From the IMG/VR virus record IMGVR_UViG_3300009545_000019: DNA of 20,000 nt, one strand, 5' to 3'. The notes below the pieces were generated by a model. The model searched no databases. It worked only from the letters and a program-made list of their open reading frames with translations, and had not been told where the DNA came from. Each line of letters begins with the position of its first letter. Position 1 is the first letter of the stretch. The stretch comes from an uncultured virus (IMG/VR IMGVR_UViG_3300009545_000019) (taxonomy: Duplodnaviria; Heunggongvirae; Uroviricota; Caudoviricetes). Shown in pieces: positions 5,746-9,346 of the stretch. The position numbers and the translations under genes are program-made.

Positions 5746-5812
5746 GATGGTTCCTCTAACGCCTCAAGCCCCGATGCCATAGGCAAGCGGGGCGAGACGG
5801 AAAGCGGTTTTT
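5746..5812 (-). repeat. Conserved intergenic hairpin-leader, copy D
   Basis: GCCCCG-ct-TGCC-tat-GGCA-t-CGGGGC (5793-5768), then TTGAGGCGTTAGAGGAAccatcATG. Confidence 0.75.
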
Positions 5813-6049
5813 TTAGACAGATTCGCCGTTCCTAAACCATGCTTCGGATTCCTCCCATCGTTTCTTGCCGTTTTCGGCATAGACGATGTGGAAGATCCCA
5901 TAGATCGCGCCGTCTCGAGACTTGCTTACGTAGTCGTAGACGTAAGCGAGGCTTGTGCCAGGAACCACGGGCTCCCTTTCAGTCCCCACGAATGCGCCCG
6001 CTTGCAGCTTCGCGCGTCGAACCGTGTACTTCTCTTGTGAAGCTCTCAT
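5813..6049 (-). CDS. Hypothetical protein, 78 aa (MRASQEKY...)
   Basis: ATGA overlap with the stop of 6046..6297. Confidence 0.65.
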   Translation of the reverse strand: MRASQEKYTVRRAKLQAGAFVGTEREPVVPGTSLAYVYDYVSKSRDGAIYGIFHIVYAENGKKRWEESEAWFRNGESV

Positions 6050-6297
6050 GACAGCCATTCCCGCGCGTACTGTCGCGCCGTTTCGCGGCTCGGATGTTGA
6101 CGCCATGATGGATCGCCCATGCCTCTGTAGCGATAGGCAAACGTGCTCCACGTTCCGTGCGTCAGCTCGACGGATACACGCGAGAACGCGCGATCGAACG
6201 TGTCGCGGTGATCGTAGCTCGTCTCCACGATCGAAGCTTCGCGGTACTTTCGCGCGCTTTCTTCGAGCAAGGAGACAATCTGAGGAGAGCGTTTCAT
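6046..6297 (-). CDS. Hypothetical protein, 83 aa
   Basis: AAAGGGA SD; ATGA overlap. Confidence 0.7.
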   Translation of the reverse strand: MKRSPQIVSLLEESARKYREASIVETSYDHRDTFDRAFSRVSVELTHGTWSTFAYRYRGMGDPSWRQHPSRETARQYAREWLS

Positions 6298-6692
6298 CGT
6301 TTCCCTTTCTTAACGTTGCCGTTCTCGTCGCAATATCGGGACTCGCGCTCGCATCCGAGTGATTCCCCGTACTTGCTCACCCATTCCAACTGTTCGGGCG
6401 AGTAATCCGAAAAGTAATCCTCATCCGTGTCGCCCGGTTTCATCGCGACGAGAGACATGATCAATTCTCGTGCCTCGATGCCGTCGCTTGCCCCGTGGAC
6501 AGCGCAGTAGAGTTGACCGCGCCGAAAGATAACCTTTCCTCCGTGCGACACTTCGCACGAAAGCTTGACGCGGCCCGCGCTGTCCCATCCGAGATCATCG
6601 AATGCCTTGATAACGATAAGGCGAGCGTCGTGCTCGCGTCGGAAAAGGCGAACCCGAAGGGTAAAGGCGAGGTTTGGATCTTCGCGTTTCAT
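6294..6692 (-). CDS. First gene of leftward early operon, 132 aa, with acidic PGDTDEDYFSDYSPEQL motif
   Basis: ATG 6692 just downstream of a sigma54-like motif; the ORF-track extension to 6821 looks non-coding. Confidence 0.75.
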   Translation of the reverse strand: MKREDPNLAFTLRVRLFRREHDARLIVIKAFDDLGWDSAGRVKLSCEVSHGGKVIFRRGQLYCAVHGASDGIEARELIMSLVAMKPGDTDEDYFSDYSPEQLEWVSKYGESLGCERESRYCDENGNVKKGKR

Positions 6693-6705
6693 GACCAAGG
6701 CACCT

Positions 6706-6721
6706 TGCTCTAATCGTGCCA
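6706..6721 (-). promoter_or_regulatory. sigma54-like (-24/-12) promoter, leftward
   Basis: TGGCACG-ATTA-GAGCA; GG-N10-GC spacing; followed by AGGT as in the rightward copy. Confidence 0.4.
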
Positions 6722-7010
6722 AGCGAGGCGACCCTAGGAACGCTCGCCCGGTCAAGGCTACCTCCCTAGCCTGGCCGTCCCAAAACGACGCTAGAAGGCA
6801 AAGCGAGGCGAGACGGGCCAAGAAACGATCCTGGCGAGACGAGCGATCGGGGCCGCGAGGCGAAAGCGTTTTCTCATGAGGTGCGAAAAACGACGCCTCG
6901 AGACGCGAACGGAGCGAAGCGCGAAGGGAGCTCGCGGTAACCGCGAAGCCAGGGTTACGAAAAACTGGCGAAAGATCTTCACACCTCCAGTTTTCGCGGG
7001 CTTTTCAGGA

Positions 7011-7026
7011 TGGCACGGTACTCGCA
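7011..7026 (+). promoter_or_regulatory. sigma54-like (-24/-12) promoter, rightward
   Basis: TGGCACG-GTAC-TCGCA versus consensus TGGCACG-N4-TTGCW (1 mismatch). Confidence 0.55.
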
Positions 7027-7033
7027 AGGTCTC

Positions 7034-7086
7034 TTTCCGTGGTCAACGGTTGACCATCCGAAACCTCTCTAGGGAGAGGTCGGAAA
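7034..7086 (+). promoter_or_regulatory. Structured 5' leader (two perfect hairpins)
   Basis: TGGTCAA-cgg-TTGACCA (7040-7056), ACCTCTC-tagg-GAGAGGT (7063-7080), closable by TTTCCG/CGGAAA. Confidence 0.5.
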
Positions 7087-7101
7087 CTAGGAAACTATAC
7101 C

Positions 7102-7257
7102 ATGGCCAAGTTTTCGCAAGAAGAGTTTGACGCGAAGTTGGAAGAGATCCTTGACGATCAAACCGGAAGCTCGCTCCTCTTAATTCCCGGAATCTATGAG
7201 ATCGTTTCCGAACATTTCAATAATGAGATCTTGGAAGCTATGGAAGAAGACGGATAA
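7102..7257 (+). CDS. Very acidic 51-aa protein MAKFSQEEFDAKLEEILDDQ...EILEAMEEDG, first gene of rightward operon
   Basis: AGGA SD; 14 D/E vs 2 K; below the ORF-track size cutoff. Confidence 0.75.
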   Translation: MAKFSQEEFDAKLEEILDDQTGSSLLLIPGIYEIVSEHFNNEILEAMEEDG

Positions 7258-7325
7258 CCCGCATCGCTAGCAGCACCGGCCCGACTCTCGCATGAGAGCG
7301 GGCCTTGGGGCGTTGGGAGACCACA
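7258..7325 (+). repeat. Conserved intergenic hairpin-leader, copy A
   Basis: GGCCCG-a-CTCTC-gcat-GAGAG-CGGGCC (7278-7304), then TTGGGGCGTTGGGAGAccacaATG. Confidence 0.8.
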
Positions 7326-7502
7326 ATGGCTAATCAATTCTCTATCAAGATCGAATTGGGCAACGATGCCATGAGAACGCGCCGCGACGTCGTGCGAGTC
7401 CTTCGCGAGCTTGCGGCAACGATCGATGATGGCTCGAAACGAGAGGAAGGGAAGATCCGAGACGCAAACGGTAACAGCGTCGGATCGTGGTCCTTCGATT
7501 GA
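7326..7502 (+). CDS. Small phage protein, 58 aa (F-x-I-x-I...GNDA...IRDANGNSVGSW)
   Basis: GGAG SD in leader A; the motif resembles small phage hypothetical proteins as I recall them. Confidence 0.8.
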   Translation: MANQFSIKIELGNDAMRTRRDVVRVLRELAATIDDGSKREEGKIRDANGNSVGSWSFD

Positions 7503-7567
7503 TCGACCTTCTCGCCGGCGTTGGCCCGTACCCTGCAAGGGGTCGGGCCTTGGGGCGTTGAGGGAAC
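7503..7567 (+). repeat. Conserved intergenic hairpin-leader, copy B
   Basis: GGCCCG-t-ACCCT-gcaa-GGGGT-CGGGCC (7523-7549), then TTGGGGCGTTGAGGGAACATG. Confidence 0.8.
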
Positions 7568-7759
7568 ATGAAAACTCGCAAGCTTTACGATTGTTTCGAG
7601 CGCGACACGCGGACCGATGGCACCGAGTTTGTAAAGGTCAAGGACGATGCTCCGGAATGGTTGCTCGACGCGGTACGCGAGTGCCAGGCGATTGCGTCGA
7701 AGATGCTGGAAGCCGTGAGTGAGAACTCCGGCGAGGAAGAAGACGACGCCGCGGAGTGA
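7568..7759 (+). CDS. Acidic 63-aa protein, possible shortened Ocr-like DNA mimic
   Basis: 18 D/E; acidic tail EEEDDAAE; Ocr-likeness is from memory only. Confidence 0.7.
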   Translation: MKTRKLYDCFERDTRTDGTEFVKVKDDAPEWLLDAVRECQAIASKMLEAVSENSGEEEDDAAE

Positions 7760-7764
7760 CTTGA

Positions 7765-7822
7765 GTCCGCACGGTAGGGCGCCTCCGACGAGACGCCTCT
7801 CCGCGCGCATCTAAGCGAAAGG
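7765..7822 (+). repeat. Second leader family, copy 1 (GTCCGCACGG...CTCCGCGCGCATCTAAGCGAAAGG)
   Basis: 10-bp (7765-7774) and 24-bp (7799-7822) blocks identical to 8745-8754 and 8759-8782. Confidence 0.9.
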
Positions 7823-7830
7823 ATAGATCG

Positions 7831-8274
7831 ATGAACATCGAACGAGAGTATCGTCGTCTACGGGCGAAGGATTGGCCAGCGCACGAAGCAATGCGGGCGG
7901 CCCGCGTCAACGCTCAGTTTACCGAATATGAGGAGCAAGGCCTCGTGCGGTTCTATGCCGAGCCCGATGAGTGTTCTTTCATCGAAGAACACATCGGCGA
8001 TTACTCGGATCTCCCTGAAAAGCTCCGGAAGAAATACCAAGCGGAAGATCGTGAACTCGCCGAACGTGAAGGCATTTGGGTCTACCTCACGGCAATCCGC
8101 CCGAACAAGCGCACGCCTTGGAAGGTTGTGGATAGCCTGGGAGCTTGCGTCGGAGAGCTGAAGGATGCCGGCTACGACACCGACATGAAGGAAGCCGCGC
8201 TCGAAGCGTTGGATAATGCATTCGAAGCTGCGGCGGCAACTCTCACAGAACGTGCGACGTTCGCCGCAGGATGA
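7831..8274 (+). CDS. Acidic hypothetical phage protein, 147 aa
   Basis: AAAGGA SD in the repeat leader. Confidence 0.85.
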   Translation: MNIEREYRRLRAKDWPAHEAMRAARVNAQFTEYEEQGLVRFYAEPDECSFIEEHIGDYSDLPEKLRKKYQAEDRELAEREGIWVYLTAIRPNKRTPWKVVDSLGACVGELKDAGYDTDMKEAALEALDNAFEAAAATLTERATFAAG

Positions 8275-8278
8275 AGCC

Positions 8279-8350
8279 ATGAGCGACAAGCCAAACGGTT
8301 CCGGCAAGGGCCACTGCGACGTCTGCGGTCGAGAATACACCTGCACGTGA
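8279..8350 (+). pseudogene. Truncated copy (23 aa) of the 9000..9278 gene start
   Basis: 8279-8343 matches 9000-9064 at 63/65 nt, then reads CT-stop. Confidence 0.7.
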
Positions 8351-8447
8351 TCCTTGCTGGCAAAAGTCGCCACACGTCGATGTTCGACCTCGGGATCGTT
8401 TCGTGAAAACGCTGTCAGAGGTTACTAGTGTGCCGCGTGGTAGGGAC

Positions 8448-8588
8448 ATGAACGCCAGCGATTCCCAGGGATACGAAACCGCAACCCTTGACTACCTCGT
8501 GAGTGATGAATCTTACGACGTAGAGATCCACGGGCCTTTGACCTGGATCTCCGATGAAAACGAAGAAGATTCTTCGGAAGAAGAATAG
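8448..8588 (+). CDS. Very acidic small ORF (46 aa from ATG 8448; 61 aa from GTG 8403), possibly a gene remnant
   Basis: 15 D/E and no K/R from 8448; frame is open back to 8283. Confidence 0.5.
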   Translation: MNASDSQGYETATLDYLVSDESYDVEIHGPLTWISDENEEDSSEEE

Positions 8589-8620
8589 GCAGAAGCGCCG
8601 CAGCGCGCGGCTTCCTAAGC

Positions 8621-8743
8621 ATGTCCAATGGCTGCTTCACGTACGAACGACGAGACGGTGCGCTAAGCGGCGTCTACCACGTCGTCGACGACACCGGCAG
8701 GCAAACCTCGTTCGCCGGCTGTGCTGAGGTGGTCGTCCTCTAA
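8621..8743 (+). CDS. Small ORF, 40 aa (MSNGCFTYERRDGALSGVYHVVDDTGRQTSFAGCAEVVVL)
   Basis: Stop codon lies directly before the repeat leader, like the stop at 7759 before copy 1; no clear SD. Confidence 0.4.
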   Translation: MSNGCFTYERRDGALSGVYHVVDDTGRQTSFAGCAEVVVL

Positions 8744-8744
8744 G

Positions 8745-8782
8745 GTCCGCACGGGCCACTCCGCGCGCATCTAAGCGAAAGG
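8745..8782 (+). repeat. Second leader family, copy 2
   Basis: Blocks identical to copy 1; ATG 8 nt downstream in both copies. Confidence 0.9.
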
Positions 8783-8790
8783 GTAAGGCT

Positions 8791-8982
8791 ATGACGCTAA
8801 TTGAGATCAAGGCGGCCGTCGAAGCCGGCAAGAAAGTGTTCTGGAGCAATCGCTCTTACGAAGTCCTCAAGGACAGCGTCGGACAGTGGCTCATCCGATG
8901 CTCAAATGGGTCCTGCATCGGGCTCACGCACCGAGACGGCGTGACGATGAACGGCGAGCCCGAAGAGTTTTTCATCGGCTAA
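8791..8982 (+). CDS. Small phage protein, 63 aa (MTLIEIKAAVEAGKKVFWSN...)
   Basis: AAAGGG/TAAGG SD; compact coding-like sequence. Confidence 0.85.
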   Translation: MTLIEIKAAVEAGKKVFWSNRSYEVLKDSVGQWLIRCSNGSCIGLTHRDGVTMNGEPEEFFIG

Positions 8983-8999
8983 GGCGAGAGGGTAGCTCA

Positions 9000-9278
9000 A
9001 TGAGCGACAAGCCAAACGGTTCCGGCAAAGGTCACTGCGACGTCTGCGGTCGAGAATACACCTGGGGTTGCGGCCATTCCGGCTCACAGGAGTATGCGGC
9101 CCGAAAGCACAACGGCACGCGAGCGCATGCGAATCGAAAGTGCAAGTGCTTCGGGCACGACCATTGCGACCCGAAGACGTGCAAGTTGGCCGGCGTCCGA
9201 ATTCCCGGTTACGTGCCGTTTTACCAACACACCGAGGAACGTGAGCCTCTCACTGATATTACAGGGTGTGACGTCTAG
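9000..9278 (+). CDS. Cys/His-rich protein, 92 aa (MSDKPNGSGKGHCDVCG...)
   Basis: GAGAGG SD; CDVC, CGH, CKC, HDHC...C. Confidence 0.7.
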   Translation: MSDKPNGSGKGHCDVCGREYTWGCGHSGSQEYAARKHNGTRAHANRKCKCFGHDHCDPKTCKLAGVRIPGYVPFYQHTEEREPLTDITGCDV

Positions 9279-9346
9279 CCCAACATCCGCCGCTCCCGGC
9301 CCATACCCTCGCGGGTTGGGCCTCGCGGTGTTGAAGGAGTCTCACA
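9279..9346 (+). repeat. Conserved intergenic hairpin-leader, copy C
   Basis: CAACATCCGC...GGCCCA-t-ACCC-tcgc-GGGT-TGGGCC (9298-9322), then TCGCGGTGTTGAAGGAGtctcacaATG. Confidence 0.75.

Follow-up and report, generated by a model that had tools for sequence, protein, structure and literature searches.

We analyzed a 20,000-nt window, the last 20 kb of the 73,290-base record of an uncultured virus of the Caudoviricetes (IMG/VR IMGVR_UViG_3300009545_000019), in which four small genes are each preceded by the same hairpin element. This element, about 60 nt long, runs from a stop codon through a linker, a hairpin and a 10-nt tail to the next translation start. It is real and widespread, and it is undescribed as far as our searches reach. 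Overall, our results support the view that the elements are joints where small genes are exchanged among relatives. On the other hand, they largely refute the proposal of a first-pass annotation that the elements are attC-like recombination sites; the element is not an integron. Judged from its sequence, the element most likely acts at the mRNA level. Our favored reading, held tentatively, is that it marks a stop and a restart, with RNA polymerase pausing or releasing its transcript in the CGU-bearing tail and a new message beginning at the purine after the tail.

The element recurs in the genome and in unrelated viruses

The four copies in the window are as follows, each leading into a Shine-Dalgarno (SD) sequence and an ATG:

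7255..7314, plus strand: element A; stop codon TAA 7255-7257, C-rich linker, hairpin 7278-7304, tail 7305-7314, SD from 7315, ATG 7326
7500..7559, plus strand: element B; stop codon TGA 7500-7502, linker, hairpin 7523-7549, tail 7550-7559, SD from 7560, ATG 7568
9276..9332, plus strand: element C; stop codon TAG 9276-9278, linker, hairpin 9298-9322, tail 9323-9332, SD from 9333, ATG 9347
5758..5815, minus strand: element D; stop codon TAA 5815-5813, linker, hairpin 5793-5768, tail 5767-5758, SD from 5757, ATG 5745

The coordinates and sequences of the four hairpins and tails, and the placement of each between a stop codon and an SD with ATG, were as the first-pass annotation had given them. 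The copies sit in two divergent runs of small, mostly unannotated genes, which are likely early viral genes, with a control region at about 6700-7100 between the runs. A descriptor of hairpin plus tail had four matches in the window and none in 300 first-order Markov resamples. A covariance model trained without C and D recovered both in the 73-kb genome (E = 8e-4 and 2e-7, respectively), and in the same genome the covariance model gave only A-D below E = 0.7. Rfam 15 had no match at E <= 5 in the window and none at the elements of eight other loci.

Homologues were gathered by pattern scans of IMG/VR, GTDB genomes and metagenomes, and a covariance model was built on 18 members of the 27-nt class, namely A and B together with 16 from outside. 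This model gave 78 matches in 53 chosen loci, many of which were second copies that the seed patterns could not match. Left out of the counts were seven rows that resembled terminators, in that AA preceded the stem or no start followed it, five mis-registered rows (three restored by hand) and exact duplicates. A large group of pattern matches, among them L009, L015 and L182, was set aside as coding sequence on the other strand. The resulting set held 65 copies in 43 loci, or 58 copies after dereplication at 80%. Altogether, the element was found in dozens of viral and metagenome contigs, with about 60 homologues outside the 73-kb genome. The seed patterns pre-set much of the stem and tail: all of them demanded the T before the first base after the tail (tail+1), and those for GTDB and the metagenomes also demanded the purine at tail+1.

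Among 51 GTDB matches, clear copies occurred only on two 4-kb contigs of metagenome-assembled genomes, possibly misbinned. Five bacterial genomes yielded four model matches, with 150 of several thousand candidates scored per genome. When element B was searched against cultured phages by blastn, no record covered 80% of the query, and the best partial match was an intergenic hairpin of Streptomyces phage phiSASD1. Several chromosomal hairpins of Streptomyces and other actinomycetes bear the identical tail. One element-bearing locus (L236) looks by eye like an actinophage.

The structure is maintained across the family. In the model-fitted alignment 96.7% of the cells pair, as against 44-57% in slid registers, and 8 of the 10 stem pairs show two-sided changes, a level reached by none of 500 shuffles; since the alignment was fitted to the model, the fitting favors structure. 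The pairing-preserving changes claimed from the four window copies extend over the family as compensatory changes in both stems. For the further argument that G-U wobbles on the sense strand favor an RNA role, the evidence is mixed. The aligned lower stem has 11 wobble cells against one mismatch. Over whole elements, however, the sense strand has the better energy in only 32 of 63, and there are 30 G-U pairs on the sense strand compared with 34 on the antisense strand. Of 63 sense hairpins, 22 end in a GNRA tetraloop, whereas about five would read GNRA on the other strand. The elements are co-oriented with transcription, and their neighbors are diverse: the 51 downstream genes fall into 44 families and the 59 upstream genes into 55.

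Spacing and composition of the element

Where the upstream open frame has at least 40 codons, the stop codon lies at -21 to -26 from the stem in 36 of 54 copies, and at -22 to -24 in 27 of these. C makes up 49% of the linker. The lower stem reads GGCCCG/CGGGCC or a compensated variant of it, the 5'-side internal loop begins with CA or TA in 39 of 58 copies, and the upper stem varies in length and is often GNRA-capped. A duplex of 10-11 bp is firm; pairing with the linker may add another 4-9 bp, but support for these is weak and they lack a fixed register. Hairpin lengths in the 58 dereplicated copies cluster at 25-28 and 34-38 nt with few between, two classes that are one DNA turn apart or simply two lineages.

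The tail, UUNRGGCGUY, holds 3-5 U per 10 nt in 64 of 65 copies (typically four) and YGT at positions 7-9 in 60 of 65, while in second copies positions 3-6 are free to vary. In 50 of the 65 copies an SD-like word comes no more than 4 nt after the tail, a count inflated by the removal of rows, and a start codon follows directly in six. ATG or GTG stands exactly at tail+1 in 6 of the 58 dereplicated copies, before six unrelated genes (L178 and L203 hold such copies), and none stands at offsets 1-4. The remaining starts lie at offset 5 (one), at offsets 8-18 (31), overlapping the tail (two) or further away (six), with none within 30 nt in 12 copies. Two of the six tail+1 starts look genuine, one by a lipoprotein-type signal peptide and the other by alignment to the window gene after B. 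The stop-to-stem spacing and these leaderless-type starts, together with the terminator likeness and the operon promoters described below, were absent from the first-pass annotation.

When the base after GTT was left free in a scan, an SD or start came next in seven of nine hairpin matches with a stop at -21 to -26, compared with 12 of 51 hairpin matches without this spacing. Hairpin and tail go together: among 48 matches to the tail only, an SD- or start-like sequence came next in five with a hairpin and in two without one, and the latter two look like chance.

Genes are exchanged at the elements, which are not attC sites

The genes next to the elements are:

7102..7257, plus strand: first gene slot, 51 residues, no family
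7326..7502, plus strand: gene after A, 58 residues, PHROG 9027 of unknown function
7568..7759, plus strand: gene after B, 63 residues
9347..9637, plus strand: gene after C, 96 residues, no family, common to L333, L351 and L369
5425..5745, minus strand: gene after D, 106 residues, no family

Three relatives (L333, L351 and L369) have flanks with 80-95% identity to the window, and in them A, B and D persist as 49-69-nt islands between unrelated genes. Element A is an island of 61-69 nt at 93-94% identity in L333 and L369. The hairpin, tail and SD of B are 98% identical in L351 amid other flanking genes. Element D is a 49-nt island in L333, where the gene after it is replaced by an unrelated 128-residue gene. 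Element C keeps the same downstream gene in all three, with compensatory changes in L351. The first slot holds a different gene between the same ATG and TAA in L333 and L369, and in L351 a RadC-family gene that runs from the same ATG and ends before a B-type element. The gene after A is missing from all three relatives. In L333 and L369 the hairpin of A is joined to the SD of B, as a crossover within the shared 16-21 nt would give; because they share such stretches, copies of the element may serve as short-homology crossover points, like the PeSL elements of T4-type phages.

The claim that the elements make early genes exchangeable was upheld as far as swapping at the elements goes, but the breakpoints do not share the G^TT position that was to be checked. 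Depending on the case, homology stops at the stop codon, the stem base, the tail or the ATG, and no single crossover point emerges. Moreover, the element is kept while its upstream gene changes, unlike a cassette made of a gene plus its attC site.

This exchange, a tyrosine recombinase encoded in the genome, and a hairpin followed by GTT in 49 of 58 copies (GTTRRR in 41) are what an attC-like site for such a recombinase, with the genes as true mobile cassettes, would lead one to expect. Nevertheless, we leave this possibility only the slightest chance. The core sites are absent, with GTTRRRY in none of 58 copies and RYYYAAC within 40 nt in five. The recombinase that the first-pass annotation had suggested looking for elsewhere in the genome does exist (G000:18063-19316), about 40 kb from the elements, but it is Xer-like: it scores 57.7 bits against an IntI cut-off of 265 and aligns to XerA/XerD without the long insert. 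Furthermore, 8 of 13 element-bearing records, including two of five near-complete ones, contain no tyrosine recombinase.

A terminator-like hairpin followed by a candidate restart

The canonical terminator trait of a GC-rich hairpin 3' of a stop codon is present, and none of A-D was called as a terminator with a canonical U-tract (at least five U in 8 nt). The pause consensus, G-11 G-10 ... Y-1 G+1, fits at tail positions 7/8, with GG in 56 of 58 copies and YG in 54. The GC stem, the UU, the CGU at positions 7-9, the fit to the pause consensus and the actinomycete tails look like a transcript 3' end. On the other hand, the starts exactly at tail+1, the gap at offsets 1-4 and the immediate SDs look like a transcript 5' end.

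Several studies provide precedent for parts of this picture. A stem-plus-CGT motif is reported at 293 of 2,115 ends mapped by Term-seq in Streptomyces griseus (PMC8914203). Streptomyces terminators are described with 3-4 U in 10 nt and with in vitro release 7-9 nt from the stem (PMC12207403), and coupled ribosomes are reported to mask terminators near stop codons (PMC7858274). Polymerase left on DNA after termination can, by one account, start RNA without sigma in vitro, only non-specifically (bioRxiv 10.1101/2024.09.28.614012).

Our favored, still tentative reading of the element as a stop-and-restart mark would work as follows. Transcripts would come from sigma54-like promoters. A ribosome terminating at the stop codon would halt about 22-24 nt before the stem, leaving the stem free to fold. 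The GC stem with UU and with CGU at tail positions 7-9 would then act as a U-poor pause or terminator, as at Streptomyces transcript 3' ends, with host RNA polymerase pausing in the CGU tail or releasing its transcript there. Finally, a 5' end would form 11 nt after the stem base by hairpin-dependent re-initiation, producing SD-first or leaderless messages. The dependence on the hairpin is suggested because tail-only copies were not seen.

Several points weigh against this reading. Release should be weak, given the GC-rich RNA-DNA hybrid over the tail. Sampled chromosomes of one genome each of the Polyangiaceae, Phycisphaeraceae and Thermoanaerobaculia hold many terminator-like hairpins with U-richer tails, and in 320 kb of one Streptomyces genome CGT at position 7 occurs in 1 of 19 and is not fixed. 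With no sigma70 box and no full sigma54 site, the restart would have to proceed without a known recognition factor. Nor need the +1 purine be special, as it is also the base with which the SD or start codon opens. The tail pairs with its own linker at -9.6 kcal/mol, compared with -9.1 +/- 0.2 for permuted linkers, and such weak pairing would serve a post-transcriptional mechanism rather than a terminator. Lastly, a comparison of nine element-bearing genomes, several of which were covered in part, found no protein common to all, pointing to host machinery or to the RNA itself.

In a bolder form, which we consider distinctly unlikely, the polymerase would stay on the open bubble and restart promoter-free at that purine, 11 nt past the stem; sigma54 might help by gripping the GC at the bubble edge. 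If this were true, a polycistronic early operon would be chopped into triphosphate-headed messages without a nuclease, and any gene dropped behind the tail would be expressible with or without an SD.

The simplest alternative is a plain attenuator or pause, to which all the terminator-like evidence applies and which needs no new mechanism. Slowing or partly stopping the polymerase would shield upstream 3' ends and step expression down along the operon, downstream genes would be read from read-through RNA, and the tight spacings would reflect genome compaction. In phiC31, the gp4-gp5 gap has a GCCCCG...CGGGGC hairpin with a UU...CGUU tail. Inside Streptomyces operons, non-terminal U-rich 3' ends with read-through of 0.06-0.72 are reported (PMC8269248). 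Yet attenuation leaves unexplained the six SD-less starts at exactly tail+1, beside the stem, the lack of starts at offsets 1-4, the expected place for starts served by an SD within the tail, and the constancy of the stem sequence. We regard it as rather unlikely.

Cleavage by a host nuclease is possible but doubtful. RNase III or another enzyme would recognize the long, twice-interrupted hairpin and cut at GUY^R, yielding a hairpin-protected upstream message and an SD-first or leaderless downstream message, as in T7 early mRNA. Such a cut would explain the exact tail+1 starts and the need for hairpin plus tail, and the hairpins between T7 early genes likewise end in GGCCUU. The stop spacing may also fit a ribosome footprint plus an extra stem between linker and tail. 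In this connection, the first-pass annotation had proposed that the tail GTT pairs back to an AAC/GAC shared near the upstream stop. AAC/GAC near the stop is not a shared feature, since 42 of 58 homologues carry it, compared with 37.4 +/- 3.4 when the linkers are shuffled. What remains of the proposal is a slight excess of linker-tail pairing, whose score was reached by 1 of 300 permuted and 0 of 300 shuffled controls and which covaries between the two L179 copies. However, the extra stem has no fixed register, the best being 41% Watson-Crick. The UU of the T7 hairpins is paired with AA within a continuous stem of 10-12 bp, while here AA faces UU in 1 of 58 copies. RNase III cuts the T7 early hairpins 2-4 nt after the GGCCUU end of the stem, not 10 nt after it, and the pause-consensus fit is left unexplained. 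The earlier claim of an mRNA processing or stabilizing element is thus weakened in its T7-type RNase III form, whereas an mRNA-level role is still the most likely.

A site acting in double-stranded or extruded DNA, as a compact phage-type promoter or a protein-binding inverted repeat, seems improbable. Intergenic regions of phiC31 show an 18-mer with a promoter role that starts with CGGG, ends with TT and often follows or overlaps a hairpin. A DNA-level site would also be in keeping with the distance of roughly one DNA turn between the two hairpin length peaks and with a GC 12 +/- 1 nt before tail+1 in 57 of 58 copies. But the 73-kb genome has no hairpin-free copy, whereas most of the phiC31 18-mers stand alone, and the best model score in phiC31 (E = 0.14, intergenic hairpins unscored) lies inside a gene. 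The inner stems covary and tail positions 3-6 are free in second copies; the long hairpin class may be a single lineage, and the viruses share no phage factor. As for known promoter types, no sigma70 site was found at any of elements A-D, and TANNNT is absent from the position profile. GG-N10-GC, the arrangement of a sigma54 promoter, precedes tail+1 in none of 58 copies and falls in the 5' half in 10, the latter being a point for a DNA-level site. The element was also considered as an extracytoplasmic function (ECF) or sigma54 promoter and rejected, because the distance to the loop is not constant and no -24 box is present.

Finally, a small self-cleaving ribozyme cutting at GUH^R would explain how the element spread over unrelated viruses independently of the host. 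Phage genes are known to have ribozymes between them, and in most copies GUU, GUC or GUA stands just before the putative end. We find this very improbable, because no Rfam ribozyme matched, very few unpaired bases are conserved, and inspection revealed no hammerhead, hepatitis delta virus (HDV), twister or pistol core. In addition, the 5'-OH end that a ribozyme leaves should hinder leaderless translation.

Sigma54-like promoters of the early operons

Each of the two operons is headed by a predicted sigma54-like promoter, the two lying back to back:

7011..7026, plus strand: sigma54-like promoter of the rightward operon (A, B, C), TGGCACG-N4-TCGCA
6706..6721, minus strand: sigma54-like promoter of the leftward operon (D), TGGCACG-N4-GAGCA

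The rightward site is invariant in L333, L351 and L369, and the leftward one is also found in L351. Over the family, such sites lie on the same strand within 1.5 kb upstream of 17 of 65 elements, some of which share a promoter and are not independent, and downstream of none; as a control, 1.33 Mb of unrelated viral loci held 10 sites. Further viruses with such sites are L203, L198, L338, L365, L377 and L190. The leftward operon would be nearly leaderless, because its first ATG (6692) comes about 3 nt after the predicted start. At several of the sites the first ATG follows the predicted start by 1-6 nt, so these viruses appear to use near-leaderless messages. A sigma54 activator gene was found in none of five of these viral records. 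Actinomycetes are not known to have sigma54; its use would argue against an actinomycete host for the lineage of the window.

Two observations concern leaders. In the leader of the rightward operon (7040-7085), a palindrome, TGGTCAACGGTTGACCA, and a bulged hairpin have arms that are changed in L333 and L351; they are possibly an operator and leader structure. At L190:5947-6040 the element has no clear gene ahead of it; it comes about 25 nt downstream of a predicted sigma54 start, and the next ATG is about 100 nt away, so the element may also act in a leader.

Gene content of the genome and its relatives

The 73,290-base genome encodes a DNA polymerase, a helicase, a D5 primase, two ParB proteins and the tyrosine recombinase. 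It (G000) has the helicase, the DNA polymerase and two other genes in common with G001 and G013, and it lacks a gene block that is common to G001, G013 and G005. For the window protein at 833-1639, the only look-alikes were unnamed viral proteins.

The first 40 residues of the gene after B match a 152-residue protein of L021 and L203, which starts directly at the element tail there. This acidic protein (L021:4281-4736, minus strand) makes the window gene look like an internally shortened form. It has a faint likeness to T7 Ocr, a lead at E = 0.2 only, and a Pfam search with it gave no match. The same leftward early operon of L021, a related 83-kb virus, includes a full Ro60 gene (TROVE plus vWA) at 330-2018 on the minus strand.

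Two other features of the window lie apart from the elements. At 8279-8415, the opening of gene 9000 occurs as a 65-nt duplicate joined to the 3' end of a RadC-family gene, of which L333, L351 and L369 have intact versions; this is a recent illegitimate joint away from any element. A second intergenic repeat, GTCCGCACGG ... CTCCGCGCGCATCTAAGCGAAAGG, has two copies (7760-7830 and 8740-8790) before genes 7831 and 8791, one of them with an inserted hairpin. The first copy folds better on the minus strand (-35.4 versus -26.2 kcal/mol). No homologue of this repeat was found, as IMG/VR gave two and five matches, none with the rest of the repeat.

Significance and comparison with known systems

Across otherwise unrelated viruses, this structured signal fixes, to within a few bases, where a reading frame stops, where a terminator-like pause follows and where translation next begins. 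As such, the 60-nt element provides a ready test of whether biology uses a sigma-free restart at a defined site. Even on duller readings, the covariance model serves as a marker of hypervariable early-gene regions, in which genes for host takeover and anti-defence are expected, and the element points to early promoters of the sigma54-like kind in these viruses.

A full-text literature search found no description of the element. The viral structured-RNA candidates of PMC10690425, a survey of 10,000 candidates, may include the motif; six element 15-mers were absent from the portions of its supplements that were available, the tables of which seemingly lack alignments.

The element belongs with the terminator-joint modules of phage early regions. 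Its closest counterparts in role are the PeSLs of T4-type phages which, as described in PMC2839356 and PMC4122927, are likewise repeated stop-to-ATG modules with a stem-loop and an SD. They also stand between small orphan early genes of a hypervariable region that are swapped at the repeats among close relatives. According to the same texts, however, PeSLs extend over about 100 bp with sigma70 -35 and -10 boxes and an AT-rich stretch. The present element has about 60 nt, is GC-rich with a 10-nt tail and no recognizable promoter box, and occurs in sigma54-like operons of unrelated viruses, so the sigma70 promoter that defines PeSLs is lacking.

The T7 sites R0.3-R1.3 (V01146) resemble the element as hairpins between early genes and before an SD, with GGCCUU ends and some GCAA loops. 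They differ in their unbroken 10-12-bp stems and AA/UU pairs; in our element the UU is unpaired and the putative end lies 10 nt after the stem. The covariance model had no match in T7 at E <= 3. Integron attC sites are similar in lying 3' of small genes, in forming a bulged, imperfect hairpin and in having GTT with purines near the next start, whereas our element shows no RYYYAAC/GTTRRRY pair, L boxes, IntI or single crossover point.

In sequence, the closest relatives are the U-poor terminators of actinomycetes. The CGT-motif 3' ends of Streptomyces (PMC8914203) likewise have a GC stem (GGCCCG/GCCCCG type) followed by UU, CGT near the expected release point and 3-5 U in 10 nt. The early terminators of phiC31, which are reported to lack poly-U tails, stand close to the element as well. 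By the wording of PMC8914203, the element carries the motif, namely a GC stem at about -10 and CGT with an adjacent T. Nevertheless, chromosomal CGT-type hairpins mostly have AA before near-perfect stems and no gene start at the tail, whereas the element has a C-rich 5' side and an internal loop that is conserved, and an SD or start follows its tail immediately. The likely hosts of these viruses would also differ from actinomycetes in having sigma54.

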